The notes under the pieces were generated by a model. It was not told the origin of the DNA, made no database searches, and saw only the letters and a list, made by a program, of their open reading frames with translations. From Candidatus Omnitrophota bacterium (GTDB taxonomy: Bacteria; Omnitrophota; Gorgyraeia; Zapsychrales; Zapsychraceae), in the NCBI GenBank assembly GCA_015233495.1, contig JADFXQ010000005.1, positions 3,066 through 67,065 of the forward strand: a DNA stretch of 64,000 nt, given 5' to 3'. Of this stretch, positions 10,709 through 24,414 are shown one piece after another. Position 1 is the first letter of the stretch. The number at the start of each line of letters is the position of its first letter. Position numbers and translations under genes: made by a program.

Positions 10709-11521
10709 TTATTCGGATGCTGACCAGAGAACTGCCTCTCCCATCCGGCGGACATTTTGCGGCAAACGCAGTTGTTGGGCCGCGTCTTTATCTAAAAGAA
10801 AAAATAATTCATTATTATTTTGGGGAAGAACCTGAGCGGCGGGCGCGTCTAGGGCTCCGGTTAATAAAGCGCGGCTGATGACCGCTTTAGGTTTTCCCTG
10901 AATTAAAAAAATAATGCAAGCGGCATTATTAATCACCGGGAGAGTTAAGCTGATCCGGATTTGGGGAGCAAAAGCGGCCTGGCATACTGTGACGCTGCGG
11001 GAGCGCTCCTCCCAATTTTTATCGTTTGGAAACAGCGATGCCGTATGGCCGTCTTCGCCAACTCCTAAAAGCATGAAATCAAAACGCGGCCACTCCCCCG
11101 CCGGACAACCGAAAAAAGTTTCCAAATGGCCGGCATATTGCGCCGCGGTTTCTTCCGCGGCGGCAGGCGAAGCGTCAAACGTCGCGGAACCGTTTGGCGC
11201 GATAATGGGATGAATATGATCATCCGGTAAAAGATGATCGTCAAACAAATTGTTCTTGAGCAGCCGAAAATTGCTGGCAGGATCCAGAGCCGGCACAAAA
11301 CGTTCGTCAGTTAAAAAAATATGGGTTTTTGACCACAGATCGTGCCGGTCTAAATTAGCCAAGCGGCAATAAAATTCCATAGGGGTTTTGCCGCCGGAAA
11401 GCGCGGCGGTGAATATTCCTCTTTCGCGGATGGCCGCTTCCGCTAAAGCCGTCCATTGCGTTAAGAGATGATTGGTAAGGCTGTAAGGATCTTCAAAAAT
11501 AAGAACCTGACGAGAGGCCAT
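10709..11521 (-). CDS. pgl: 6-phosphogluconolactonase
   Basis: GGKTP, FLTDERFVP and GVGEDGHTASLFP motifs. Confidence 0.85.
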   Translation of the reverse strand: MASRQVLIFEDPYSLTNHLLTQWTALAEAAIRERGIFTAALSGGKTPMEFYCRLANLDRHDLWSKTHIFLTDERFVPALDPASNFRLLKNNLFDDHLLPDDHIHPIIAPNGSATFDASPAAAEETAAQYAGHLETFFGCPAGEWPRFDFMLLGVGEDGHTASLFPNDKNWEERSRSVTVCQAAFAPQIRISLTLPVINNAACIIFLIQGKPKAVISRALLTGALDAPAAQVLPQNNNELFFLLDKDAAQQLRLPQNVRRMGEAVLWSASE

Positions 11522-11524
11522 ATT

Positions 11525-12469
11525 TTATTTCACTTTTCGAGCGATGACTCGTTTCACCGCGGCGATGATGTCCGGGCTTTTCAGATGATAATGCCGCAGG
11601 AGTTCCTCCGGCGATCCTGACTGGCCGAATTGGTCGTCGACCGCGATTATTTCCATAGGGACAGGACATTTTTGCGCCGCGACTTCAGCGACCGCGCTGC
11701 CTAAGCCGCCGGCCCTCTGATGTTCTTCCGCGGTGACAATGGCGCCGGTTTCCGAGACGCATTTTTCAATCATCGCGGCATCGATCGGTTTGATCGTGTG
11801 CATATTGACGACCCGGATATCGATGCCTTCCTGAATCAGATCATCGGCGGCGTTTAAGGCTTCAGAAACCAAACCGCCGCAGGCAATCACGGTCGCGTCT
11901 TTTCCGCCGCGCAAAATGTTTGCTTTGCCCAAAATAAACGGGTCGGATTCTTTGGTGATGATCGGAAACGGCGCGCGGCTGGTGCGCATATAAATCGGCC
12001 CGGGAGTCTCAGCCATTAGGCGGGTGGCTTTGCGCGCTTCAATTACATCCGCGGGGCAAAGCACTTTCATATTCGGTAAAACGCGCAGAATGGCGAGGTC
12101 TTCCAAACATTGCGCGGTAGCGCCGTCTTCGCCTACTGTCACGCCATAATGAGAGCAAACGATTTTAACATTGCATTCGTTGTAGCAGACATCGAGCCGC
12201 AGCATATCATAAGCGCGGTTGGTCAAAAATACGGCAAACGAAGCGATAAAAGGTATATAGCCGGCCATACTCAAACCGGCGGCGGTGCCGACCAAATCCT
12301 GCTCGGCGATGCCGACGGTAAAAAAACGGTTGGGATAAGCGTCACGGAAAAATTCCGCGCGGGTCGCGTCTTCGAGATCCGCGGATAAAACCAGGATTTT
12401 ATTGTTGGATTTTCCGAGCTCGACGATTTCCGAGCCGAATCCGTCACGTGTTGCCGCGATATGAGCCAT
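11525..12469 (-). CDS. transketolase, C-terminal (pyrimidine-binding) subunit
   Basis: 314 aa, homologous to the Pyr and C-terminal domains of transketolase. Paired with the N-terminal subunit gene upstream (split tkt). Confidence 0.85.
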   Translation of the reverse strand: MAHIAATRDGFGSEIVELGKSNNKILVLSADLEDATRAEFFRDAYPNRFFTVGIAEQDLVGTAAGLSMAGYIPFIASFAVFLTNRAYDMLRLDVCYNECNVKIVCSHYGVTVGEDGATAQCLEDLAILRVLPNMKVLCPADVIEARKATRLMAETPGPIYMRTSRAPFPIITKESDPFILGKANILRGGKDATVIACGGLVSEALNAADDLIQEGIDIRVVNMHTIKPIDAAMIEKCVSETGAIVTAEEHQRAGGLGSAVAEVAAQKCPVPMEIIAVDDQFGQSGSPEELLRHYHLKSPDIIAAVKRVIARKVK

Positions 12470-12486
12470 AAGTCTGGGTTTCCCTT

Positions 12487-13305
12487 TTAGTTTAATTCCG
12501 CTAATGCGGTTTTTAATTGTTCTTCATTTGGCGCTTTACCATGCCATTTCGCTTCGCCTTCCATAAAAGAAACGCCTTTGCCTTTTATGGTATGAGCGAT
12601 GATCGCCAAGGGTTTGTTTTTGGTTTTGCCTAATTTTTGGAAAGCCTCCAGCAAGCTGGGGAAATTGTGTCCGATCGCTTCCACCGTGTGCCAGCCAAAA
12701 CTCCGCCATTTATCGGCGAGCGGTTCCAGATTTTTGATCTCATTGGTCGGCCCGTTTTCCTGCACTTTATTATAATCAATAATGGCGCAAACATTGTCTA
12801 ATTCGCGGTGGCTGGCAGTCATCGCGGCTTCCCAAACCGAACCCTCCTGGATCTCGCCGTCACCCAACAGGCAATACGTTTTGTAGCGTTTATTCTGCAT
12901 TTTTGCGGCTATTGCCAGGCCATTCGCGACGGATAGACCGTGTCCTAATGATCCGGTGCTGAATTCCACACCCGGCACCTTTCTATAAACATGGCCTTGC
13001 AGCAGGCCGCCGAATTTCCGGTATAATTTGTATTCGTCTTTTGAAAAATATTTTTGGTTAGCTAAAGTCACGTATACAGCCGGGGAAATGTGCCCTTTTG
13101 AAACAATCAACCGATCGCGGTCTTCCCAGAGAGGGTTAGCCGGATCATGGTTCATCTGACAGGAATACAAAGTCAATAAGATTTCGACCGCGGACAAAGA
13201 CCCGCCAGGATGTCCGCACTTGGCGGCGTTGGTTAATTCTAAAATTTCCCGGCGGTACAATTTTGCCTGACTCTTGAGAAATTCGATGTCGGTTGTTTTA
13301 GACAC
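12487..13305 (-). CDS. transketolase, N-terminal (TPP-binding) subunit
   Basis: GHPGGSLS and GDGEIQEGSVWEA TPP-binding motifs. Confidence 0.85.
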   Translation of the reverse strand: MSKTTDIEFLKSQAKLYRREILELTNAAKCGHPGGSLSAVEILLTLYSCQMNHDPANPLWEDRDRLIVSKGHISPAVYVTLANQKYFSKDEYKLYRKFGGLLQGHVYRKVPGVEFSTGSLGHGLSVANGLAIAAKMQNKRYKTYCLLGDGEIQEGSVWEAAMTASHRELDNVCAIIDYNKVQENGPTNEIKNLEPLADKWRSFGWHTVEAIGHNFPSLLEAFQKLGKTKNKPLAIIAHTIKGKGVSFMEGEAKWHGKAPNEEQLKTALAELN

Positions 13306-13340
13306 GTTAAACTCGCTTTGGTTATTTGTTGATAAAAGTC

Positions 13341-14615
13341 TTATTCGAAAAATAAATGTTTAAGATTCATGACGTCGCGGTAGGGAACAACTCCCAACAT
13401 TTTTCCGAACGCATCCGTGATCGGCAGAGCGCGGAAACCATAGCGGGCGAACATCTCTGAGGCAGATTTTAAGGTGCTGTCCGTGTTCAAGCTGATAACT
13501 TTGCTCGTCATGAAATTTTGTAAAAGTTCGCTCTCTTGCGCGCGCAGCAATTCTTTTAAGTGGATGACGCCTAATAACATATCCGCGGGATCAAGGATAT
13601 AAAGATAAATAATACAATCCTTATCTTTAGCGGATTGCAGATATTCTTGCCGGACTTGCCCGGCCGTCACATCCGGGGAAAAGCGTAAAAAATCCGAAAC
13701 CGCGAAATGGATGGCCCGTTCTTCTTGCATTTCCAGAATGCCCCGGATTTTCGCGGCGTTTTTATTATCAAGTAATTTTAAAATGGCGTCGACTTCCCAC
13801 CAGGGCAAGATTGACAGAATATCCGCGGCTTGTCCCGGAGTCATCTCATTGATCAAGAGCGCGGCCTTGTCTTTTTTGAGCGATCCGATCAAGTCGCGTT
13901 GATACCGCGGATCCAATTCTTCCAGGGTGTCGGACGCGTGTTCGGTTTCCAACTCGGAAAATAAGGCCACCCGCTGCTCCGGGTCAAGTTCTTCCAAAAT
14001 ATCCGCCAAATCCATGGGCTGCATTTCCGAAAGCCGCTCCTTGAGGATTTTTAATTTCAGGTCGCCTTTAAAACTGCTGATATTTTCCGGCAAACGTTGG
14101 ACATAATTCCAGGATACGGTTTGACTGCGGATTTTTTCTGCTAGTTTATAAATAAAATTCGCCAGCCATTTTAAACCGACGCGGCGCAGCAACCCATAAC
14201 GGCTGAGGTCCACGTCGATGACGAATAGTTTTTTATTGCTCAAGAACATTTTAACGTCATAAACAACTTCCACTTCCCTTCCATCCACGTCCAAGACTTT
14301 TTTATCCAAGATGTGGTCGCGCAGCAGCACGCTGCCTTCCGCGGGTTCGCCGATGTAAGGCTCAAAGGAAGCGATGTCGATTTCAACATCTTTTATCCCG
14401 AACAATTTCACTTTATCCCAGGGGATCAGCAAGGACGGTTCCCCAAACGGCCGCGAGACCAGAATATGCGTTATTTCGGCAATTTTATCTTTGTCGATAA
14501 TCTGAAAATCGTCTAACTTGCCGATTTTATTGCCGGAATTGATGACCGGGATATCGGTGATTTCGCTTAAGAAAAAGGTTTGATCCACCGGAGTCGGCCG
14601 GGCTGTGGTGTTCAT
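13341..14615 (-). CDS. soluble PRC-barrel / MgtE_N / tandem CBS domain protein (MgtE-like cytoplasmic Mg2+-sensor architecture without a channel domain)
   Basis: N-terminal PRC-barrel-like repeats (VLDVDGREVEVVYDV). MgtE_N acidic helical region (DLADILEELDPEQRVALFSELETEHASDTLEELDP...PGQAADILSILP). Two C-terminal CBS motifs. No TM segments. Confidence 0.7.
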   Translation of the reverse strand: MNTTARPTPVDQTFFLSEITDIPVINSGNKIGKLDDFQIIDKDKIAEITHILVSRPFGEPSLLIPWDKVKLFGIKDVEIDIASFEPYIGEPAEGSVLLRDHILDKKVLDVDGREVEVVYDVKMFLSNKKLFVIDVDLSRYGLLRRVGLKWLANFIYKLAEKIRSQTVSWNYVQRLPENISSFKGDLKLKILKERLSEMQPMDLADILEELDPEQRVALFSELETEHASDTLEELDPRYQRDLIGSLKKDKAALLINEMTPGQAADILSILPWWEVDAILKLLDNKNAAKIRGILEMQEERAIHFAVSDFLRFSPDVTAGQVRQEYLQSAKDKDCIIYLYILDPADMLLGVIHLKELLRAQESELLQNFMTSKVISLNTDSTLKSASEMFARYGFRALPITDAFGKMLGVVPYRDVMNLKHLFFE

Positions 14616-14619
14616 CAGT

Positions 14620-14811
14620 TTATTTTCCTAACAAGGTGTAGAATTTAAAAAATAAAATTCCGACAAGCAAAATGAGATAAAGCCGTAAAGTGATCAAAGC
14701 AAACCGGACAAACGGCGTCATTTTGATTTGGGGTTTAGCGTATTTGTGATTGATTTCCTGCACGGATTCTATCGCGTCTTTAAAAACATTACGTATAAAA
14801 AAACCAGCCAT
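14620..14811 (-). CDS. small membrane protein (63 aa), unknown; lies between the NRAMP-like and MgtE_N/CBS genes
   Basis: Basic N-terminus, one or two hydrophobic helices, tight spacing within the operon. Confidence 0.4.
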   Translation of the reverse strand: MAGFFIRNVFKDAIESVQEINHKYAKPQIKMTPFVRFALITLRLYLILLVGILFFKFYTLLGK

Positions 14812-14825
14812 AGAGCAAAGTCCCT

Positions 14826-16097
14826 TTATTTAAATATCTCCGGAAATAAAGCCGTCAAGCCGTACAGCGTTGAAACGATAATAATGAACACCACGATGCC
14901 GACATTGATAATGTTTTGTAAAAGGGTGTTTTTATACTTTCCCATCAACTCATCATTATTGAGCAAAAGAATCAAAAATACAAGCGCCGCCGGTAAAAGC
15001 GTGACTGCGATGACCTGAACGAACAGCGTGATCAGCACCAAAGGCGCGCCGGGGATGAGCACCACAGTTCCGGCGGTCAACAAAGCAAAGAAATAAAAAG
15101 CGTAAAACCAGGGTGCCTCGCGGACATTGGCGTTAAGGGAATGCGCCCAGCCAAAAACTTCTCCGAAGGCCCAAGAACTGGCTAAAGAAATACAAACCGC
15201 GCCGAGCAAGCCGGCGTTGAACAGGCCGATCGCTAAAAGCGTGCCGAGGAATTTATTAACGCTCATCAGCTGAATCGCGGCTTGTGCCGCGCTGTCAATC
15301 GGCACGCCGTATAAAACTGTGCCTGTGACCACAATACAAAAAGCGGCGACCATAATCGTGAAAAACGAACCGATTGCCGTGTCGACCTTGCCCCAAACAA
15401 TATCTTTTTCTTTGACGTTTTTATCGACCACTGCGCTTTGTTGAAAAAAGACCATCCAGGGAGCAATCGTGGTCCCGATGTTTGCCATGAGCAAAAAGAA
15501 AATTTGATTCGTAAACCCGCCCGGCGGCAAATGCGGCACAAAACTATTGTATAAAACATCCGGCACGGATGGGTTCACCATAAACGCAGCGGGAATATAA
15601 ATCAGGTTTAAAGCGCAGAAACCCATGACAATTTTTTCCCAAGTCCAGTATTTCCCCTGCAAAACCATAAAGCCCATCAGGGCGGACACCGCGAGCACCG
15701 TGATGACCGGCGGGACATGGAAAATGCTCAAGGCCGCGGTCATGCCGATGAATTCCGTGACCAAGGTCAGCCAATCCGTGAGGATGAGGTCGAGCAAGGA
15801 AAACCAGCCCCAAAACGGGCCGAACCCCTGAAAAATCGCTTCCGCGTGGCCGCGTTTGGTGACCGCGCCGAGTCGCACGGTCATCTCCTGGACAAAATAA
15901 GCGATGAACCCCAGAACAACCAGAAACCACAAAAAATGATATTTATATTGAGCGCCGGTCACGGCGTAAGTGGTGATCCCGCCCGCGTCATTGTCGGCGA
16001 TCATCACAATGATCCCCGGCCCGGCGAGGAGTAAATAAAGTTTCAGACCTTTAAAAAATTTACGGTATTCGTAAAAACTTTTGGCGAAAATATTCAT
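14826..16097 (-). CDS. NRAMP (SLC11) family transporter with non-canonical metal-site motifs, NRMT-like
   Basis: 11-12 TM segments. The TM1 motif reads ADNDAGG where canonical Mn/Fe NRAMPs have DPGN. The TM6 motif reads IAPWMVF where they have MPH. Confidence 0.75.
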   Translation of the reverse strand: MNIFAKSFYEYRKFFKGLKLYLLLAGPGIIVMIADNDAGGITTYAVTGAQYKYHFLWFLVVLGFIAYFVQEMTVRLGAVTKRGHAEAIFQGFGPFWGWFSLLDLILTDWLTLVTEFIGMTAALSIFHVPPVITVLAVSALMGFMVLQGKYWTWEKIVMGFCALNLIYIPAAFMVNPSVPDVLYNSFVPHLPPGGFTNQIFFLLMANIGTTIAPWMVFFQQSAVVDKNVKEKDIVWGKVDTAIGSFFTIMVAAFCIVVTGTVLYGVPIDSAAQAAIQLMSVNKFLGTLLAIGLFNAGLLGAVCISLASSWAFGEVFGWAHSLNANVREAPWFYAFYFFALLTAGTVVLIPGAPLVLITLFVQVIAVTLLPAALVFLILLLNNDELMGKYKNTLLQNIINVGIVVFIIIVSTLYGLTALFPEIFK

Positions 16098-16243
16098 AAA
16101 GCGAAGGAAATCAAAACAGATTGGCTTTCGATTTTAACCACGAGAGGATAACAGAAAAAATCCGGCGTGTAAACCAAAAATCAGGAAAAATAGCCACAAA
16201 ATGCGGGCTATACTACAAAGCAGCCTGACTTGAATCGAAAAAA

Positions 16244-16801
16244 CTACCAACCTAAAATCAGGAAATAAAAGAAATAAAAAATGATCCAAAAAGCTGAAAA
16301 TATCGCTCCTTTTTTTGTCGGCCATTGTTGAACACATTTGTTCCCGGAAAAGTCGATGATCTGGGCGATAAAAATGCCCACTAAAAAACGAGTAGCTCGC
16401 GCTAAAATGGAAAAGAAGAGAAATAGAGTTATATTGCCGGAGAGTCTTCCCCACTCCGCAGCGTAAATTTTATATGGGATGCCCCGAAACATCCCGTTAA
16501 ACACACTGATGAGACCGGATTCGCGCAAATGTCCCGCGACTTGGTTGACCATGTTCGCAGAAATCCCGGGTGTCCTGTCCAGACGCAAGGTTAGTTGCGG
16601 CATAGGGGTTTGCTTCCCGACAAAATACATCAGTAAACCGCCGGAGAGAGCTCCGAGAACCGCCCACATCACAGCTCGATATGCCATTTTGCGGTTGGGT
16701 AAAAAGAATGCCAATCCGGTAAGCCAGACGTCCGGCACGATGAAAAAAAACGTCCCTTCGGCCAGCCCCCATAAATAAGGAATGAAAACAGTTGCGATCA
16801 T
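16244..16801 (-). CDS. DedA/YqaA-like (SNARE-associated) membrane protein, tentative
   Basis: 185-aa polytopic protein. The WGLAEGTFFFIVPD...GALSGGLLMYFVGK pattern resembles the YqaA/DedA re-entrant motif region. Directly upstream of plsC. Confidence 0.4.
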   Translation of the reverse strand: MIATVFIPYLWGLAEGTFFFIVPDVWLTGLAFFLPNRKMAYRAVMWAVLGALSGGLLMYFVGKQTPMPQLTLRLDRTPGISANMVNQVAGHLRESGLISVFNGMFRGIPYKIYAAEWGRLSGNITLFLFFSILARATRFLVGIFIAQIIDFSGNKCVQQWPTKKGAIFSAFWIIFYFFYFLILGW

Positions 16802-17448
16802 GATCGATTTTCCTTAAGCCGAATTACGGCTTCGCGCAATTGTTTTACAGCCGTATCTTTCGGGCCTTCCAGGGCAATCGGTTGTCCGATATGAACTTCG
16901 CAAAAAAAAGGCAATAAAATTAACTCTCCTTTTGGCAGGGCGCGGTACATATTGTTTAAATACACCGGGATGATAGGAATATTGCCGTGTTCTTTGATGA
17001 GGTGGACGACGCCGGCATGAAAGGGCCCGATCGTGCCGTCTTTTGACCGCGTGCCTTCCGGAAAGATAATCAAAACATTTTTTTGCTTCAAGGCATCTTT
17101 CAGTTTATCTATGGGATTGCATTCCCGGTTAATATGGGCTCGTTCAATGGACAAGATATTAAAAAAGGTGTGCGCGAGCCAGGAAACGAAAGGATTTTTT
17201 TCAAAATAGTCAGCCGCTGCCACAGGACGCACTTTTCCTAATCGGTGTATGGGAAATAAACTTAATAACGCGGCAGTATCCAGATGGCTGGAATGATTAG
17301 CGATCAAAATATAAGGTGTTGAAAGGGGTAAATTCTCCCGCCCATAGATCCGTAGACCGATAAAAATATATAACACCGGCCGCAAGATAAAAATGAAAAA
17401 TAATACGCGCAGAATGTTCCGCATATCAATAATAAAAATACCGGACAA
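16798..17448 (-). CDS. plsC: 1-acyl-sn-glycerol-3-phosphate acyltransferase
   Basis: HSSHLD (HxxxxD) and FPEGTRS motifs. Confidence 0.85.
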   Translation of the reverse strand: MSGIFIIDMRNILRVLFFIFILRPVLYIFIGLRIYGRENLPLSTPYILIANHSSHLDTAALLSLFPIHRLGKVRPVAAADYFEKNPFVSWLAHTFFNILSIERAHINRECNPIDKLKDALKQKNVLIIFPEGTRSKDGTIGPFHAGVVHLIKEHGNIPIIPVYLNNMYRALPKGELILLPFFCEVHIGQPIALEGPKDTAVKQLREAVIRLKENRS

Positions 17449-18388
17449 GATGAAAAAATATCGGGGCTGTATAACACAAAGAGTCGGCGCGATCTAAAGC
17501 GCCTCCGTGTCCGGGGATAAAATTGCTGAAATCTTTGATCCCGACGTCGCGTTTGATCGCGGACATGACAACATCGCCGAAAAATCCCAATACTCCGATG
17601 ATGAAGCCGAAAAATAAAGTTTCCTCGACGTTAAAAGGCGTTAAAAATCTTAAAAAAAGAGAACAAAGAGTTGTTGTGATTACACCGCCCCAAAAACCTT
17701 CAGACGTTTTCTTCGGGCTGACGCCTGGTATGATTTTACGGCGCCCGACGGCTTTTCCCCAAAGATATTGAAAGACATCATTCATCTCGGTCGCAATGAC
17801 TAAAAAAAGCAGCAATGTGGCGCCGTTGACCCTGCCAGAGTTGATAGCCGGCATTTTTGATAAAAATGCCAAGTGGCTTAAGCCGAACACAAAAGCCATC
17901 AACCCCCATTGAATAGCAGATGTCGAAGATAAAAATCCTTTGGGTTCTTCCGTTAAAACAAGGCGTATCGGGATAAACAAAAACATATAAACAGGAATAA
18001 AAATAATGAACATCCCGTACCAACCGATCGAAACAAAATAATATTGAGCCGGAATGCAGAGAAATGCCCAAAATAAAGCCCGGTGATCAGCGCGCCGGGT
18101 ATCAAGAATCGTAACAAATTCTTTAAAAACCATAAAACTCAAGAGGGCAAAAAATATGATCGTTATAGAACGGTTGACGACTACTGCGGCAAAGAAAAAA
18201 AATGCCATGATCCACCATGCGCGAACGCGGTCTTTCAATTCCGTGATATTGAAGGAAATGATGTGGCGAGATAAAAATTCTATGAGCGCGGAAGACAAGA
18301 GCAAAACACAAAAAATCATCAAACCGGCCAGTGACAGGGAAGACAGAATAGGATCCGTAATGCCCCTCATAGATTCGCCTCCTTCCAA
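17426..18388 (-). CDS. cdsA: phosphatidate cytidylyltransferase
   Basis: SPKKTSEGFWGG and GHGGALDRADS signature, with an extended N-terminal TM region. Confidence 0.85.
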   Translation of the reverse strand: MEGGESMRGITDPILSSLSLAGLMIFCVLLLSSALIEFLSRHIISFNITELKDRVRAWWIMAFFFFAAVVVNRSITIIFFALLSFMVFKEFVTILDTRRADHRALFWAFLCIPAQYYFVSIGWYGMFIIFIPVYMFLFIPIRLVLTEEPKGFLSSTSAIQWGLMAFVFGLSHLAFLSKMPAINSGRVNGATLLLFLVIATEMNDVFQYLWGKAVGRRKIIPGVSPKKTSEGFWGGVITTTLCSLFLRFLTPFNVEETLFFGFIIGVLGFFGDVVMSAIKRDVGIKDFSNFIPGHGGALDRADSLCYTAPIFFHLVRYFYY

Positions 18389-19002
18389 ATCGCAGTTAAA
18401 CGGTTAAGGCATGTTACAAGTGTTAGAGCAGCTGCGATGGCAAAGAATATTTTCCAATAATGAATCGTTGCCGGGTAGAAAAAAACTATAACGATTAGCA
18501 ATCCGGTAAAAAAAGCCCGATCGCTTTTGCCCATGGGACCTTCGTAATGACGGTGCGCTTTCAATGCAGGCCCAAGCAGACCGCAAAATTCCGTAAAAAT
18601 CCCTCCTAAAATAAAAAATAATATCGGGAATTCAGCCGATGGACATAGAATAAGAAATGGAATAAAAAGAGCAGCATCGGAAACAAGATCGCCGATCTCG
18701 TTTAAAATCAGTCCGAGCCGAGATTGCAATTTAAATTCCCTGGCCATCATACCATCGAGAGCATTTAATGCCATCCGGATAAAAAGCCAAACAGGGAATA
18801 TGAGAATTTTAACATTATCCATAGAAACCAAGGTCATCAGAAAACCTACGCAAATAGACCCCCCAACGGCCGATAAAGTCAAACCATTGGGGGTAATTTT
18901 CAGATCATGTAAAAAAAACATGACCGGACGCATGAGATTTTGAAACGCTGGTTTTAGGTTATAAATACTCGGCACCGTCACTCCCTTCACTGACAGATTC
19001 AA
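18367..19002 (-). CDS. CDP-alcohol phosphatidyltransferase family protein (PgsA/Pss-like)
   Basis: DGMMAREFKLQSRLG...EIGDLVSD motif (DGxxAR...G...D...D). Confidence 0.8.
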   Translation of the reverse strand: MNLSVKGVTVPSIYNLKPAFQNLMRPVMFFLHDLKITPNGLTLSAVGGSICVGFLMTLVSMDNVKILIFPVWLFIRMALNALDGMMAREFKLQSRLGLILNEIGDLVSDAALFIPFLILCPSAEFPILFFILGGIFTEFCGLLGPALKAHRHYEGPMGKSDRAFFTGLLIVIVFFYPATIHYWKIFFAIAAALTLVTCLNRLTAIWKEANL

Positions 19003-19006
19003 AAGA

Positions 19007-19687
19007 TTAAGAACATGCCCGAAAAACTTCCCGCGGCCCTAATTTTGTGTCTTTCGGCACGATCGCGCCGGCCGGGACAATCGCGTTGTCGCCGATTTCC
19101 ACGCCGGGCATGATGACCGAATTGAGACCGATCAAGGCGTTTGCGCCGATTTTTACTTTTTTGAGTTTAAGGCCTTTGCGCTCAAAGATGTGACAGATGA
19201 CCGTTGCGTTGCCGCCGATGACGGCGTTGTCACCGATTTCCAATAAGGAAAGATCCGCCACGTTTTTGGAATTGATTTGCACGTTGTACCCCAGCTTCGC
19301 GCCCATCATGCGGTAGAACAAGCTGGCAAACGGGGTCAATAACATGAAGTCCATAAAAAAGGCTTTTACGGCTTGCACTAAGGCATTGAGAAAAAACCAT
19401 TTCAGCATTTCGCTGTCTTTAAAACCATAGTACCCTTCTTTCAGCCGCAGTTGTAAGACAATGTTGAGCAGCCCGACGAGCAACAGCAGTATGATCCCAA
19501 ACAGAAAAAATCCGCCGGCCATGCCCAAGCCGAGCATCAGGGCCCGGGCCAGAATGTCCCAACCCGCAGTCCAGCGGAGCAGGTTTAAAAACAGCATTAA
19601 GCTTGGCACAAGCGACAGGCCAACGACCATAGTGCCTAAAAAATATAGGCAGAGAACAATAATGCTTTGGATAATGGCAATGATCAT
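19007..19687 (-). CDS. membrane-anchored hexapeptide-repeat (LbH) acyl/acetyltransferase
   Basis: Three N-terminal TM helices followed by [LIV]G-x4 hexapeptide repeats (IGDNAVIGGNATV...IGANALIGLNSVIMPGVEIGDNAIV). Start moved to ATG 19685-19687, preceded by a GGAGGGA ribosome-binding site. The track start at 19786 lies inside repeat copy A. Confidence 0.7.
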   Translation of the reverse strand: MIIAIIQSIIVLCLYFLGTMVVGLSLVPSLMLFLNLLRWTAGWDILARALMLGLGMAGGFFLFGIILLLLVGLLNIVLQLRLKEGYYGFKDSEMLKWFFLNALVQAVKAFFMDFMLLTPFASLFYRMMGAKLGYNVQINSKNVADLSLLEIGDNAVIGGNATVICHIFERKGLKLKKVKIGANALIGLNSVIMPGVEIGDNAIVPAGAIVPKDTKLGPREVFRACS

Positions 19688-19740
19688 CTGATTCCCTCCT
19701 AACCCTATATGTGTAAACTTGATGCTTACTACGGCTTTTT

Positions 19741-19814
19741 GTAGGGGCGCCCCTCGTGGGCGCCCGTCGTCCTGGCGCGGCCGCACAACGGGCGCCCACG
19801 AGGGGCGCCCCTAC
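19741..19814. repeat. GC-rich palindromic element, copy A (inverted orientation): GTAGGGGCGCCCCTCGTGGGCGCCCG-N22-CGGGCGCCCACGAGGGGCGCCCCTAC
   Basis: A perfect 26-bp inverted repeat read directly from the sequence. The loop is the reverse complement of the loop in copies B-D. Confidence 0.9.
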
Positions 19815-19891
19815 ATCATTTAACAGGACATTGCAATTTTCACATAGCAACAAGTATTTTATATCAGCTGTATGAGCCGCTCGTAATCGTA

Positions 19892-20623: not shown

Positions 20624-20644
20624 TTGTTGCCTTTTGTCCGGTGT

Positions 20645-20709
20645 TGTCGGGGCGCCTATTGTGGGCGCCCGTTGTTCGGCCGCGCCAGATTGACGGGCGC
20701 CCCTACGAC
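20645..20709. repeat. GC-rich palindromic element, copy B: GGGGCGCC-TATT-GTGGGCGCCCGTTGTTCGGCCGCGCCAGATTGACGGGCGCCCCTAC
   Basis: Shares the 44-nt core with copies C and D. Confidence 0.9.
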
Positions 20710-20758: not shown

Positions 20759-23700
20759 TTAAACATTGGTCAATTCTATGGCCAAGGTTTTCACTTTTTT
20801 AAGATCAACCTTTCCCGTTCCCAGCATCGGGATCGCGTCTACCCGGACAAAACTGTCGGATTTCGGGATCCATAAATTCGGCAAACCTTTTTGGGATAAT
20901 TTTTCCGACAGGCCGGCGATATCCAAGTCAACAGCATGCAAGACAATCAGCCGCTCCCCTTTTTTTTCATCCGGCACAGACGTTACCGCAATCACCGGAT
21001 CAACCGCGCCGATCGCCTCCAGAATATTTTCTTCCACCTTGATATGCGGCACCATTTCGCCGCCGATTTTGCTGAACCGGCTCAACCGGTCCGTAATTTT
21101 GATAAACCCGTCCTCGTCAATGGCCGCGATATCGCCGGTCACATACCACCCGTCTTTAATCACTTCCGCGGTCTTAGCCGGATTGTTGAGATAACCCTTC
21201 ATCACATTCGCGCCTTTGACCAAAAGCAGACCCGGTTCATCCGGCCCTTTTGCTTCCCCAGTGTCAGGATCAACCACCTTGACAGCCACGCCGGGGATCG
21301 GATGCCCGACCTTGCCGAATTTATGTCCAACCTGACGCTCCATAGCCGCGTCATTCACATAATCCGGAAATCCGACCGTCACAATCGGCGACAATTCCGT
21401 AGCGCCATAACCTTCAAACGGAGTGACGCCGAATTTTTCGTGAAACGCGGTCGCGAGCGGCTCTTTTAATTTTTCCGCGCCGACAACCGCGAGCCGTAAA
21501 TGGCCGAATTGTTCCGGCGTGCATTTTTTGATATACGCGGACATAAAAGTCGGCGTGCCCATCAAAATCGTTCCCTTATACTTCGCGGCCAGTTTGCCGA
21601 TCGTCCCCGCATCTAACGGGTTTGTATGATAAACAACGCCGACTGCGGTTCCGACCGGGAAGCACATCGTTGCCGTGAATCCAAACGAATGAAAAAACGG
21701 CAAAGCCGCGATCACGACATCGTTTTTCTGAATATTAAAGATCTGATAAAAACTTTCGATATTGGAAAAAATATTGGCATGAGTGAGCTGTACGCCTTTG
21801 GGCTCCCCGGTAGATCCGCTCGAAAAAATAATAGTCGCGGTTTCATGTACATCGGTCTGATCCCCCCGGACATATAAAACGCGCAACAGCCATTTCGGCA
21901 AAACCAAACCGGAGACAAAATACAGCCTGGTCAAAACCGGATTGATTTCTTTTTTGATATCTTCGGCAAAAATCATCTGGGGCAGAGCCGCGATCCCGGT
22001 TTTTTCCAAAAACGCCCGCGAAGTCACAATGCGCCGCATATCGCATTGTTTAACGCAAGACGCGAAAGCGTCGGCGGACAATGTGAAATTTAGATTCACC
22101 GGAACTTTGCCGGCAAAGGCAATGGCCAGATTAGCGATCACCGCGAAACAAGACGAAGGCAACAAGACCCCCACTTTTTCCTTTTCGTAGGGGCGCCCCT
22201 CGCCTGCCCCGGCCGCTTTGTTTTGCGAAGCAAAACAGCCGGTGTGGGCGCCCGTTGTTCGGCCGCGCCAGATTGACGGGCGCCCACAAGCTTGTCTGCC
22301 GAAGGCAGGGGACGCCCCTACAGAATCGCTTGCAAAAATTATTTTGGACAACGCCACAGCCGCGGCAAATGTCTTGCCATAAGTGATCTTTCCGCCCAAA
22401 GAATCAGCCATGGAAAATTTGAAAAAATGACGTTTTACCTCATCAATAAACGCCAGATGCAATTTTTTGCGCCACGCGCCGCGCAGGATATTGGCCTCTG
22501 CCCCCAATTCCTGAACAGCCTGGCGGACCTGAGGCGCTTTGACGTCCGGCGCCAAAGGTTTGCCGAATACGATCGAAACCGGATACAAAGTCAACCGCGG
22601 CATTTTCCAAATATATTTGCCGTTGGCATAACTGTAAATACTGCCCCAAACATTATCCAGGTACAACGGAATGATCGGCGCGTTCAAGCCTTTCATAATA
22701 TGCTCAAACCCGCGGTTAAACGGCAGCATATTGCCGGTGCGCGTCAAATGACCTTCCGGAAAAATACAGACGAGTTCGCCGTTCTGAATCGCTTCCCGCG
22801 CGGTGGTCAAGGCGCGGACAACCGCTTTCGGCCCGCCCTCCCGGTCGATCGGAATGACTTTCATAATGCGGCAGAGCGTGTTGATAACCGGCAATTCATA
22901 CATATCCTGCGCCATGATAAACCGGACCGGACGTTTTAAAGCGGCCAGCACCAATGCTCCGTCGATAAATGAGATGTGATTCGCGGTGAGAAGCGCGCCG
23001 CCCTGATTCGGCACATTGTGACTGCCGACCACGCGCAGCCTATACACCGTGTGCGCGGTTAGCCACGTTAAAAGCCGGACGAGCGCGCTGGGCAGGGTCA
23101 TCAGGATATAAATCGTTGTGAAGAAAGTCAGGCCGGAGACCATTAAAAAAATTTTATCCGCCCGTATGCCCAACTGACCGCTCACAATCCAGAGAAACGC
23201 GCCCGCGGCGAGCGAGCCGATCGACGTGACAATATTCAAAACGGACAAATATTGGCCGCGGTTTTCTTCCGGGCTCCAGCGTTGGAAAAAAGCGTTTAAC
23301 GGAACCGTATAAAAGCCGGCGCAAATTCCCAGAATGAACAGAATAAGCAAGGCAGAGAAGAAATTTCCGCCGCATCCCAATAAAAAAGCCATGACTGTGA
23401 TCCCGGCCGCGCCTAACGGCACCAATCCCAATTCCACCTTGCCTTCGGACGCCATAGCCGCGAGCACGCTTCCCCCGGCGATGCCTAAGGATACCGCGAC
23501 GAGAAGAAAACTGATTTGATCCTGGGCCAAGTGAATGATATGCGAGCCGTAGATCAAAATATTCATTTGAAACACCGCGCCGATAAAGGAAAAATACGCC
23601 AAGGCCAACATGGTGAGAAAAAGTCCGTTGTCTTTGCGGATTCCTTTCCAGGCGGACAATGCGCCGGCCCAGAAATTTTGCGGTTGCGCCGGGATTGACT

Positions 23701-24298
23701 TAAGGGTGGGCTGAATCAAAAAACTCGCGGCAAATCCCAAGAGCACTAAAAAAGCCATTAACAGCCCGACGACTGACAAATGTTGTTGAAAAATTTTGTA
23801 TAAAATACCGCCCGCAGCTGTCCCCAAAATGATCCCGGTGAATGTCCAGAGCTGAAGATAACCGTTGCCCTTGGACAAATCCTCCTCGCTCAACATCTCC
23901 GGCAAAATGCCGTATTTGGCCGGCGAGAAAAGCGCGCTTTCAATCATGAACAACAATAAAGTCCCGCACAACAGCCAGAGGTTCCCTATATAAAGAGCGC
24001 CGGCCGCACCCAGCGCCAGCCCCACCTTGACCGCGCTCATGACAATGATGATGGATCGCTTAGAAAAACGGTCCGCCAAAAAACCGGCATAAGGAGAAAA
24101 AACAACAAACGGCAGGATAAACAAAAAACCGACAACACTCACAAACCGGCTGGCCGCTTCGGCCGAAGTCAAAATCTGAATCGCATAAAGCGAAACCACC
24201 ACCTTCAACAAATTATCACTAAACGCGCCAACAAACTGGGCAGTCAGCAAGGCCTTGAAAGAAATTGATCGACAATTTTCGCGCATATCGTCCCTCAA
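20759..24298 (-). CDS. fusion protein: LplT-like MFS lysophospholipid transporter / PlsC-type acyltransferase / acyl-ACP synthetase (Aas-like)
   Basis: About 12 N-terminal TM segments of MFS type. Acyltransferase HISFIDG and FPEGHLTRTG motifs. AMP-binding SSGSTGEPKG and GYGATE motifs. One continuous 1179-codon frame. Confidence 0.8.
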   Translation of the reverse strand: MRDDMRENCRSISFKALLTAQFVGAFSDNLLKVVVSLYAIQILTSAEAASRFVSVVGFLFILPFVVFSPYAGFLADRFSKRSIIIVMSAVKVGLALGAAGALYIGNLWLLCGTLLLFMIESALFSPAKYGILPEMLSEEDLSKGNGYLQLWTFTGIILGTAAGGILYKIFQQHLSVVGLLMAFLVLLGFAASFLIQPTLKSIPAQPQNFWAGALSAWKGIRKDNGLFLTMLALAYFSFIGAVFQMNILIYGSHIIHLAQDQISFLLVAVSLGIAGGSVLAAMASEGKVELGLVPLGAAGITVMAFLLGCGGNFFSALLILFILGICAGFYTVPLNAFFQRWSPEENRGQYLSVLNIVTSIGSLAAGAFLWIVSGQLGIRADKIFLMVSGLTFFTTIYILMTLPSALVRLLTWLTAHTVYRLRVVGSHNVPNQGGALLTANHISFIDGALVLAALKRPVRFIMAQDMYELPVINTLCRIMKVIPIDREGGPKAVVRALTTAREAIQNGELVCIFPEGHLTRTGNMLPFNRGFEHIMKGLNAPIIPLYLDNVWGSIYSYANGKYIWKMPRLTLYPVSIVFGKPLAPDVKAPQVRQAVQELGAEANILRGAWRKKLHLAFIDEVKRHFFKFSMADSLGGKITYGKTFAAAVALSKIIFASDSVGASPAFGRQACGRPSIWRGRTTGAHTGCFASQNKAAGAGEGRPYEKEKVGVLLPSSCFAVIANLAIAFAGKVPVNLNFTLSADAFASCVKQCDMRRIVTSRAFLEKTGIAALPQMIFAEDIKKEINPVLTRLYFVSGLVLPKWLLRVLYVRGDQTDVHETATIIFSSGSTGEPKGVQLTHANIFSNIESFYQIFNIQKNDVVIAALPFFHSFGFTATMCFPVGTAVGVVYHTNPLDAGTIGKLAAKYKGTILMGTPTFMSAYIKKCTPEQFGHLRLAVVGAEKLKEPLATAFHEKFGVTPFEGYGATELSPIVTVGFPDYVNDAAMERQVGHKFGKVGHPIPGVAVKVVDPDTGEAKGPDEPGLLLVKGANVMKGYLNNPAKTAEVIKDGWYVTGDIAAIDEDGFIKITDRLSRFSKIGGEMVPHIKVEENILEAIGAVDPVIAVTSVPDEKKGERLIVLHAVDLDIAGLSEKLSQKGLPNLWIPKSDSFVRVDAIPMLGTGKVDLKKVKTLAIELTNV
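22187..22321. repeat. GC-rich palindromic element, copy C (135 bp, longest form with extra terminal and internal hairpins), inserted in frame inside the aas/lplT gene
   Basis: Runs GTAGGGGCGCCCCT...AGGGGACGCCCCTAC and contains the 44-nt core plus a CTTTGTTTTGCGAAGCAAAACAG hairpin. Length is 135 bp, which is 45 codons, and it is translated as VGASPAFGRQACGRPSIWRGRTTGAHTGCFASQNKAAGAGEGRPY. Confidence 0.9.
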
Positions 24299-24321: not shown

Positions 24322-24414
24322 AAACGCCCCTCGCCCACCACGTATGCCATTTTTTGTGGGGCGCCCATCGTGGGCGCCCGTTACGAGGCCGCGCCAGAAC
24401 GACGGGCGCCCCTA
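24322..24414. repeat. GC-rich palindromic element, copy D
   Basis: Runs ACGCCCCTCGCCCACC...GTGGGGCGCCCATCGTGGGCGCCCGTTACGAGGCCGCGCCAGAACGACGGGCGCCCCTAT. Lies immediately upstream of the aas/lplT start. Confidence 0.85.

Follow-up and report, generated by a model that had tools for sequence, protein, structure and literature searches.

The fourth class of Mg2+ importers in prokaryotes consists of transporters of the NRMT type (NRAMP-related Mg2+ transporters), which raise the question of how a cell stops an uncoupled carrier of this kind from overloading it with Mg2+. We met this question in a stretch of DNA of 64,000 nucleotides (nt) from a Candidatus Omnitrophota bacterium (GenBank assembly GCA_015233495.1, contig JADFXQ010000005.1, positions 3,066 to 67,065 of the forward strand), which is called the window below and is numbered from its first letter. 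It contains three closely spaced open reading frames (ORFs) on the minus strand, coding for an NRMT transporter, a membrane peptide of 63 amino acids (aa) and, as the last of the three, an accessory protein that carries the domains with which the Mg2+ channel MgtE faces the cytoplasm. We put the probability at roughly 55% that this locus is a three-gene uptake cassette for a divalent cation, most likely Mg2+, with a trans-acting regulator and a peptide subunit.

The neighbourhood of the transporter and the MgtE-like gene has been described before. Shin et al. 2014 (PLoS Genet, PMC4072509) named these transporters NrmT, reported that most NrmT genes adjoin an “MgtE cytoplasmic-domain” gene and speculated that the partner could serve “cytoplasmic feedback regulation” or act as a metal chaperone; in the same work the NrmTs of Clostridium (C.) acetobutylicum rescued a Mg2+-transport-deficient B. 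subtilis. An earlier reading of the window, made from its letters alone (the sequence-only reading), did not know the pairing as a characterised system; the pairing itself is not new, as it had been published with the same idea of feedback regulation. The closest solved relative, EleNRMT of Eggerthella lenta, was studied alone and apart from the product of its neighbouring gene, which the structural paper does not discuss (PMC8806188). Our literature search turned up no subsequent work on the accessory gene of NrmT loci, and nothing on the combination of PRC-barrel, MgtE and CBS domains or on the peptide. The pairing of transporter and accessory protein is a published but uncharacterised association, flagged in 2014 and ignored since then, also in the structural work on EleNRMT.

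Assignment of the transporter

To place the transporter among its relatives, all PDB sequences were searched and the closest match was EleNRMT (7qia; E 3e-60, 208 bits), while the best canonical Nramp was a chain of the Deinococcus MntH protein DraNramp (E 5e-13, 52 bits). The Pfam Nramp family (PF01566) covers the protein over profile positions 1-356 of 357 with an E-value of 2e-69, and its score against the NCBIfam MntH model is 94 bits, far under the cut-off of 430 bits. HMMER aligned residues 19-409 with residues 35-426 of EleNRMT, which has 11 helices, a stretch of 391 residues with small gaps only, and the identity between the two proteins in a MAFFT alignment was 36%.

NRMTs are recognized by the signature DxxG in the unwound part of helix 1 and TxxA or TxxT in that of helix 6, where Nramps have DxxN and A/CxxM (Ramanadane et al. 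2022, PMC8806188). In the HMMER alignment the sequence D37-A-G-G40 falls upon D55-A-G-G58 of EleNRMT, in columns where DraNramp has D-P-G-N, and T209-T-I-A212-P-W214 falls upon T224-T-I-A227-P-W229, in columns where DraNramp has A-T-V-M-P-H. A canonical DPGN or MPH motif was found nowhere else in the transporter. The sequence-only reading had pointed at DAGG and APW as the metal-site motifs and at a residue pattern like that of NRMTs; the alignments to EleNRMT and DraNramp place both motifs as it did and bear out the pattern. Four further residues, E115, W214, Q219 and Q361, correspond to E133, W229, N234 and Q379 of EleNRMT, so that the two histidines of the helix-6b proton pathway are replaced by W214 and Q219 and the helix-3 glutamate and helix-10 glutamine are retained. 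EleNRMT needs no H+ coupling to carry Mg2+ and Mn2+; D55, T224 and Q379 are important for its function, and W and N stand where Nramps have the helix-6b histidines (PMC8806188).

For comparison with relatives, one genome per species was scanned for the NRMT motifs, which gave at least 595 matching stretches, and the best 80 loci were kept; unless stated otherwise the loci counted below are these 80. Among 80 aligned sequences (window and relatives) the D, A, G and G of transmembrane (TM) helix 1 as well as E115, T209 and W214 were invariant in all 80, and position 212 was A in 71 and T in 9. The NRMT signature residues, including E115, W214, Q219 and Q361, were invariant or nearly so in the 80 relatives. 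Judged by its sequence the transporter belongs to the NRMT clade rather than to the Mn/Fe Nramps, because its closest solved relative is EleNRMT and the DxxG/TxxA signature is present.

The accessory protein, a pore-less MgtE module

Pfam recognized three domains in the accessory protein, MgtE_N (1.8e-22), CBS (7e-14) and PRC (PF05239), the last with 22.9 bits (cut-off 21.2); in the homologues P0410, P0471 and P0486 this region reaches 42-46 bits. Residues 188-418 align with the cytosolic domain of T. thermophilus MgtE (E 1e-21). Having diverged too far to be picked up by Pfam, the second CBS motif is shown by the MgtE alignment, by an AlphaFold model (AF2) and by the Foldseek matches of this model, which was built from 66 homologues and has a mean predicted local distance difference test (pLDDT) score of 76.5. 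The top Foldseek matches were MgtE cytoplasmic domains (E ~1e-18), and CBS structures of the CorB/CorC/CNNM group (7cfk and 7m1t) were also among the fold matches. We found no hydrophobic segment in the accessory protein and no Pfam match to the five-helix MgtE pore domain (PF01769), and the chain terminates about 10 residues beyond the position aligned to MgtE D247, so that plug helix and pore are both missing. It follows that this protein corresponds to only the cytoplasmic module of MgtE and is no channel of that kind, as had been proposed from the letters alone.

The residues that contact ATP in MgtE, Y170, R187, D188 and F227, were mapped (with PMC5529423) to Y337, K354, E355 and F394 of the accessory protein, and among 72 accessory sequences Y337 is conserved in 71, K/R354 and E/D355 in 64 each and F/Y394 in 66. 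Of the five carboxylates that were checked in the Mg4, Mg5 and Mg7 sites, E59, D91/D247 and D226/D250, two are kept, E59 as D229 and D247 as D414; the other three are taken up in the Discussion.

In front of the MgtE_N domain lie the PRC barrel, a second small beta domain and a linker (Table 1). Five aspartates of the second beta domain (D100, D104, D109, D120 and D136) are invariant in our alignment A3, and this Asp cluster might, as a speculation, be an alternative sensing site. The possibility that the segment is another PRC barrel was rejected, as residues 95-137 scanned alone gave no Pfam match, and the beta domain stays unassigned. The linker is modelled with low confidence (pLDDT < 50 at residues 158-164 and 170-193), and its W-N-Y motif is also found in the accessory protein of Eggerthellaceae, which is described at the end. 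W169 and P174-L-P176 of the linker and the invariant C-terminus YRDVMNLKH are candidate docking elements.

Where the module comes from is indicated by its relatives, of which there are 6,769 in a set of 1.84 billion representative proteins. Among the 122 full-length relatives in the top 150, 101 lack a TM segment, a few have a single one at the C-terminus, and about 15 are approximately 600 aa long and match residues 14-418 of the accessory protein. According to Pfam, the long relatives P0404, P0410 and P0449 consist of PRC, MgtE_N, CBS and MgtE pore domains, and they match residues 14-418 at 29-31% identity. Since full-length proteins of this composition match the accessory protein along residues 14-418, it is on sequence evidence best described as a pore-less PRC-MgtE, and since the same module is fused to MgtE pores it presumably gates a Mg2+ pore when covalently attached.

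Two groups of relatives deviate from these forms. P0471, P0492, P0494 and P0500 (611-651 aa) combine PRC, MgtE_N and CBS with C-termini that have multiple TM segments and stay below the Pfam model of the MgtE pore, and P0471 aligns with only the first part of the membrane domain of a true MgtE. The pores of these proteins may be degenerating, which would place them midway from PRC-MgtE channels to the accessory protein with no pore. The Omnitrophota variants P0069 and P0070 (449-455 aa) were considered as TM-tailed forms, and this was rejected since they are longer through a stretch of about 25 linker residues that is duplicated in tandem (GLKGFANFVHSLA... repeated). The duplication is internal and falls between the beta domains and MgtE_N, in the candidate docking linker.

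A conserved membrane peptide

The sequence-only reading had noted a 63-aa membrane peptide between the two larger genes and had treated it as a spacer. The membrane part of this claim stands, as the peptide is present and has one strong hydrophobic, TM-like segment at residues 37-55, but the peptide is far from being a spacer: in an iterated profile search its ORF was found in 75 of the 80 loci. One further locus (L018) has a match by tblastn only, and of the remaining four without a peptide three are on contigs that end too early and one is rearranged. Two gene orders occur, transporter-peptide-accessory in 61 loci and transporter-accessory-peptide in 14, and in the latter order the peptide is only 36-42 aa long and begins with MPR[VI].

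The window peptide has 44-45% identity to its homologues in a deltaproteobacterium, an archaeon and an acidobacterium, and from Omnitrophota to Archaea the family keeps 40-60% identity and an invariant motif with the core P-[RK]-[IV]-x-[MIL]-[TS]-x-x-V-[KR]-x-x-L-x-x-L-R-x-Y-L-x-x-L-V-x-L-L-x-Y-[KR]-F. A large protein database holds 1,335 clusters of the family, in which every named one is a “hypothetical protein”, and neither the window peptide nor 21 family members had a match in Pfam or NCBIfam. When contexts were sampled from the peptide side, three out of three had the arrangement Nramp, peptide and PRC-MgtE_N-CBS. Two possible relationships were examined by hmmsearch at maximum sensitivity and found no support, as far as such short sequences allow a verdict: no similarity was detected to the plug helix and TM1 of MgtE, of which the peptide could have been a remnant, and none to the TM tail of the Eggerthellaceae accessory protein.

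From this conservation we conclude that the peptide is a real, conserved third component of the cassette, and it is probably a subunit of the transporter complex. A role in attaching the sensor to the membrane is plausible, because the accessory protein that comes without a peptide has a TM tail of its own, but the peptide may just as well modulate the carrier directly.

Conservation and spread of the cassette

The pairing of the two larger genes, which the sequence-only reading had seen in the window, recurs throughout the surveyed genomes. A gene for a PRC, MgtE_N and CBS protein lies directly downstream from the transporter gene in 78 of the 80 loci, and in the other two, which lack the accessory gene, the contigs stop at or inside the transporter gene. 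Recurrence in 78 out of 80 genomes places the arrangement far beyond chance. The transporters of these loci are 55-77% identical to that of the window and come from a broad spectrum of Bacteria (among them Omnitrophota relatives, Acidobacteriota, Nitrospirota, Chlorobiaceae, Proteobacteria, Actinomycetes, Chloroflexota and a genome of the candidate phyla radiation (CPR)) as well as from Archaea (among them Methanomicrobiales, Methanothrix, Methanosarcina, Thermoplasmata, Bathyarchaeia, Aenigmarchaeota and Nitrososphaerota).

The pairwise identities of transporter and accessory protein correlate with r = 0.86 (71 loci). Clustering of 1,080 flanking ORFs gave no other conserved neighbour, the top family being common to 8 of approximately 82 loci. 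Because the identities co-vary and no other neighbour gene is widely shared, the cassette is self-contained and has been transferred as a unit between domains of life. The transporter of the Omnitrophota window is 67-77% identical to those of methanogens, Thermoplasmata, Aenigmarchaeota, a CPR bacterium, Chlorobiaceae and others, and such identity across domains implies that the whole cassette has spread by extensive recent horizontal transfer. Many of these genomes were recovered from samples of peat, lakes and sediment.

M-box riboswitches (RF00380, 101-143 bits) are found upstream from 12 of approximately 82 related cassettes, on the coding strand, which ties this clade to the supply of Mg2+; no riboswitch for Mn2+ or another metal was found in the 25 related loci scanned. 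One full-length M-box (L061:3662-3842, 132 bits) precedes a cassette on a contig binned as a Methanomassiliicoccales archaeon. To our knowledge M-boxes are essentially bacterial; either this contig is mis-binned, or the riboswitch travelled with the cassette in a transfer between domains.

Some other neighbours of related cassettes may be mentioned. A gene for a metal-sensing repressor of the CsoR/RcnR family flanks the cassette in five loci (among them L003:2560-2835, Pfam Trns_repr_metal, and L068:611-892) and a P-type cation ATPase in about four (e.g. L002:6288-8852), which hints at a broader metal-homeostasis context in some genomes. A group II intron (D1-D4 and catalytic core) is located on the minus strand at L003:8436-9191, about 2 kb downstream from an Acidobacteriota cassette.

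Layout of the locus and its surroundings

The features of the cassette are collected in Table 1. The three ORFs and their domain content had been read correctly from the letters; all three are present on the minus strand at the positions then given, and Pfam confirms the Nramp, MgtE_N, CBS and PRC domains.

Table 1 Features of the NRMT cassette in the window.
Feature	Position	Strand	Basis or remark
NRMT-type transporter gene	14826..16097	minus	423 aa; Pfam Nramp 2e-69
TM1 site motif D37-A-G-G40	15978..15989	minus	DxxG of NRMTs; DPGN in Mn/Fe Nramps
TM6 site motif T209-T-I-A212-P-W214	15456..15473	minus	TxxA of NRMTs; AxxM-P-H in Nramps
Single-pass membrane peptide gene	14620..14811	minus	63 aa; second gene in cassette
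Soluble accessory protein gene	13341..14615	minus	424 aa; PRC, MgtE_N and CBS pair
PRC-barrel domain, aa 12-80	14376..14582	minus	Pfam PRC 22.9 bits, barely over cut-off; AF2 beta barrel, pLDDT ~88
Second small beta domain, aa 95-137	14205..14333	minus	AF2 model; best-conserved block of N-terminal half
Linker, aa 160-190	14046..14138	minus	conserved W169, Y171, P174-L-P176, F182, G184
MgtE_N helical domain, aa 191-297	13725..14045	minus	Pfam; aligned to T. thermophilus MgtE 18-120
CBS pair, aa 300-421	13353..13718	minus	Pfam, MgtE alignment, AF2 model, Foldseek
Promoter-like site	16145..16173	minus	TTTACA, 17-nt spacer, TG-TATCCT; consensus scan only, weak evidence

The transporter stop codon and the peptide start codon are separated by 14 nt, and the peptide stop codon and the accessory start codon by 4 nt, with Shine-Dalgarno-like sites before the start codons of the peptide (AGGGA) and of the accessory protein (AGGAAA). 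The promoter-like site is located within the 146-nt gap upstream from the transporter gene. Database records identical to the window proteins, from a Candidatus Omnitrophica metagenome-assembled genome, are named “magnesium transporter” and “hypothetical protein”. Rfam found no riboswitch in the window at the gathering threshold, and none with E ≤ 10 over positions 13000-17500, where weak matches to PhrS, to small nucleolar RNAs and to microRNAs were discarded as chance. No terminator-like site was found in the 35-nt gap following the accessory gene. An upstream ORF for a 185-aa membrane protein (16244-16801) was considered as a fourth component and rejected, since it is conserved in no related locus; it has no similarity to the gene upstream from the cassette in L002.

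Directly downstream from the cassette (10709-13305, minus strand) are a transketolase split into two genes, one for its N-terminal and one for its C-terminal half, and a gene resembling that of 6-phosphogluconolactonase, and upstream (16244-19786, minus strand) is an apparent phospholipid-synthesis cluster with an acyltransferase, a CDP-diglyceride synthase-like and a CDP-alcohol transferase-like gene. Only the first transketolase half was named by Pfam, the other names being read from the sequence. None of these neighbours is conserved beside the cassette elsewhere, according to the clustering of flanking ORFs.

Further away in the window a GC-rich palindromic element of about 60-85 nt occurs four times (19735-19818, 20640-20705, 22181-22290 and 24349-24414); it has the core GTGGGCGCCCGT...GGCCGCGCC...ACGGGCGCCCAC and looks like a repetitive extragenic palindromic (REP) element or a miniature inverted-repeat transposable element (MITE). 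Three of the four copies are intergenic; the remaining one lies in frame within a 1179-aa ORF (20759-24298, minus strand) that fuses major facilitator superfamily (MFS), acyltransferase and acyl-ligase parts, and encodes an odd linker rich in Gly, Arg and Pro.

Discussion

How, then, could the carrier be kept from overloading the cell? NRMTs are LeuT-fold carriers in which a widened metal site (D, G, T and A instead of D, N, A and M) would accept largely hydrated Mg2+, and by analogy with EleNRMT the window transporter would be a uniporter without coupling, for which the membrane potential supplies the driving force. Such a carrier would have no thermodynamic brake, and this could be why the cassette also encodes a cytoplasmic regulator. 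In the Mg2+ channels MgtE and CorA the brake is found in the cytoplasmic domains. We propose that the accessory protein docks on the cytoplasmic face of the transporter, that it would sense cytoplasmic Mg2+ and/or adenine nucleotide via its MgtE_N and CBS domains, and that it would close or slow the carrier once the cell is Mg2+-replete. The peptide would be the third subunit, either as a membrane dock for the soluble regulator or as a direct modulator of the carrier.

Gating in trans is what we can best infer, because the transporter gene is linked near-obligately to a complete MgtE module, the module has pore-fused homologues and its ATP-site residues are kept; together these argue for down-regulation by a separate protein. 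The physical complex, the sensed ligand, the direction of the regulation and the role of the peptide are inferred along with it. The ligand may be Mg2+, adenine nucleotide or both, the Mg2+ carboxylates of MgtE being partly lost. A wider proposal, which we consider tentative and would not call probable, is that NRMTs are normally multi-subunit, with a portable pore-less MgtE sensor that gates the uncoupled carrier by Mg2+ and ATP and is held at the membrane by its own TM tail, as in the EleNRMT type, or, in the clade of the window, by a dedicated micropeptide that is universally conserved. If this is true, one sensor cassette has through re-use come to serve both a channel (MgtE) and a carrier (NRMT), and the published in-vitro behaviour of NRMTs is that of the unregulated core only.

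A number of observations weigh against a trans-acting regulator of Mg2+ uptake, and they are given here together with the alternatives upon which they bear. Three of the five Mg2+-bridging carboxylates checked are lost (D91 to G261, D226 to G393 and D250 to N417), a pattern that the window protein has in common with most of 72 relatives, and the plug helix, by which MgtE relays the signal, is missing. For the peptide, no similarity to any known regulator or to TM1 of MgtE could be detected. EleNRMT and the C. acetobutylicum NrmTs transport without an accessory protein (PMC8806188, PMC4072509), and in the only published test of a pair, that of Acidobacterium (A.) capsulatum in B. subtilis, co-expression gave no better rescue (PMC4072509). 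The missing carboxylates and plug helix, and the transport by NRMTs alone in vitro, would also suit an accessory protein that, along with the peptide, is not a gate but helps to assemble the carrier or to keep it stable in the membrane, or serves as a metal chaperone or buffer that takes the imported ion, and “metal chaperone activity” was indeed offered as an alternative by Shin et al. (PMC4072509). We regard this as unlikely, since an MgtE_N domain and a CBS pair with ATP-contact residues form the architecture of a sensor and not of a chaperone, and the known role of the same module, when fused to real MgtE pores, is gating. As for the peptide, small membrane peptides that stabilise or destabilise Mg2+ transporters are generally known (MgtS and MgtR), which would be in line with a stability factor.

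The transported ion could also be another one, in which case the cassette would import Mn2+ or a different divalent metal and the accessory protein would sense that metal, or only the ATP/ADP energy state. The NrmT-group transporter of A. capsulatum seemed to prefer Mn2+ and to carry mainly this ion (PMC4072509), and EleNRMT carries Mn2+ as well (PMC8806188). The window cassette has no M-box leader (Rfam, at the gathering threshold and at E ≤ 10), nor have about 70 of 82 relatives; CsoR/RcnR-like repressor genes stand beside five loci, and the Mg2+-site residues of the accessory protein are only partly kept. However, the residues shown to matter for Mg2+ in EleNRMT, in particular T224 (T209 in the window), are invariant, 12 related cassettes are preceded by Mg2+ riboswitches, and no riboswitch for Mn2+ or another metal was found in the 25 related loci scanned; we find it improbable that Mg2+ is not the ion concerned. 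Finally, the peptide has neither annotation nor a Pfam family, and one might hold that the adjacency is mere co-regulation or co-transfer, with the CBS protein acting elsewhere and the 63-aa ORF being incidental or mis-called. This is hardly credible and is largely refuted by the comparative data: the trio stays together through two gene orders, inter-domain transfer and entirely different neighbourhoods, transporter and accessory protein co-vary to the extent given above, and the peptide retains its identity and its motif from Omnitrophota to Archaea.

Sensor domains that regulate Mg2+ transporters are well known, and the cassette is no new principle. What appears to be new is the presence of a conserved micropeptide, the descent of the accessory protein from PRC-MgtE, the existence of split and tail-anchored forms, and the spread of the cassette between domains of life. 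For researchers working on Mg2+ transport and on SLC11 proteins, a partner that is essentially obligate across Bacteria and Archaea, that amounts to the full cytoplasmic half of a PRC-type MgtE, and that is joined in the largest clade by a conserved micropeptide, offers handles for experiments, and in practice transporter, peptide and accessory protein are best expressed together. For the unannotated micropeptide family of about 1,300 clusters the cassette gives a function by association.

Comparison with known systems

The CBS pair of the accessory protein may be likened to that of CorB, CorC and CNNM, where a CBS pair is the cytoplasmic nucleotide and Mg2+ sensor of a Mg2+ transporter; in those proteins sensor and membrane domain form one chain, and the fold within the membrane is not that of NRMTs. 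With T. thermophilus MgtE (2yvy, 2zy9 and 5x9g) the accessory protein shares the superhelical MgtE_N domain, the CBS pair and the ATP-contact residues, but it has no plug helix or pore and carries about 190 extra N-terminal residues that form the PRC barrel, the beta domain and the linker. The channels composed of PRC, MgtE_N, CBS and pore have the same domain order as the accessory protein and differ from it by their PF01769 pore; we know of no PRC-bearing full-length MgtE channel that has been characterised.

The peptide calls to mind MgtR, MgtS and MntS, very short enterobacterial modulators of Mg2+ and Mn2+ transporters that are encoded with or near a cation transporter and act post-translationally, MgtR and MgtS being embedded in the membrane. 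These are lineage-restricted and have no sequence similarity to the window peptide (no Pfam or NCBIfam match), whereas the window peptide family spans many bacterial and archaeal phyla.

The NrmT loci of Shin et al. (the Ca_c0685 operon of C. acetobutylicum and ACP_2976/2977 of A. capsulatum) have a transporter of the same clade and an MgtE-cytoplasmic-domain partner, as in the window, and part of that family carries M-boxes, as do some relatives of the window cassette. In their cases the MgtE-like gene, called a small protein, precedes the transporter gene or is split in two, whereas in the window the accessory gene follows the transporter gene and encodes 424 aa including a PRC barrel and a second beta domain; the gene for a conserved membrane peptide of 37-69 aa, which belongs to the cassette as well, is not mentioned by these authors (PMC4072509).

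The closest comparison is with EleNRMT itself, whose tested site residues D55, G58, E133, T224, A227, W229 and Q379 are identical in the window transporter. In Eggerthellaceae the transporter, 91-93% identical to the crystallised EleNRMT construct, is preceded at a distance of 4 nt by a gene for a 450-aa protein with PRC, MgtE_N and CBS domains, which in the window lies downstream instead. This protein and the accessory protein of the window can be aligned over their whole length (28% identity, E 2e-56), and no peptide gene was found beside its gene. Unlike the window protein, it bears a hydrophobic TM tail of its own at the C-terminus, and the presence of this tail in place of a peptide suggests that attachment to the membrane is a conserved need of the accessory protein.

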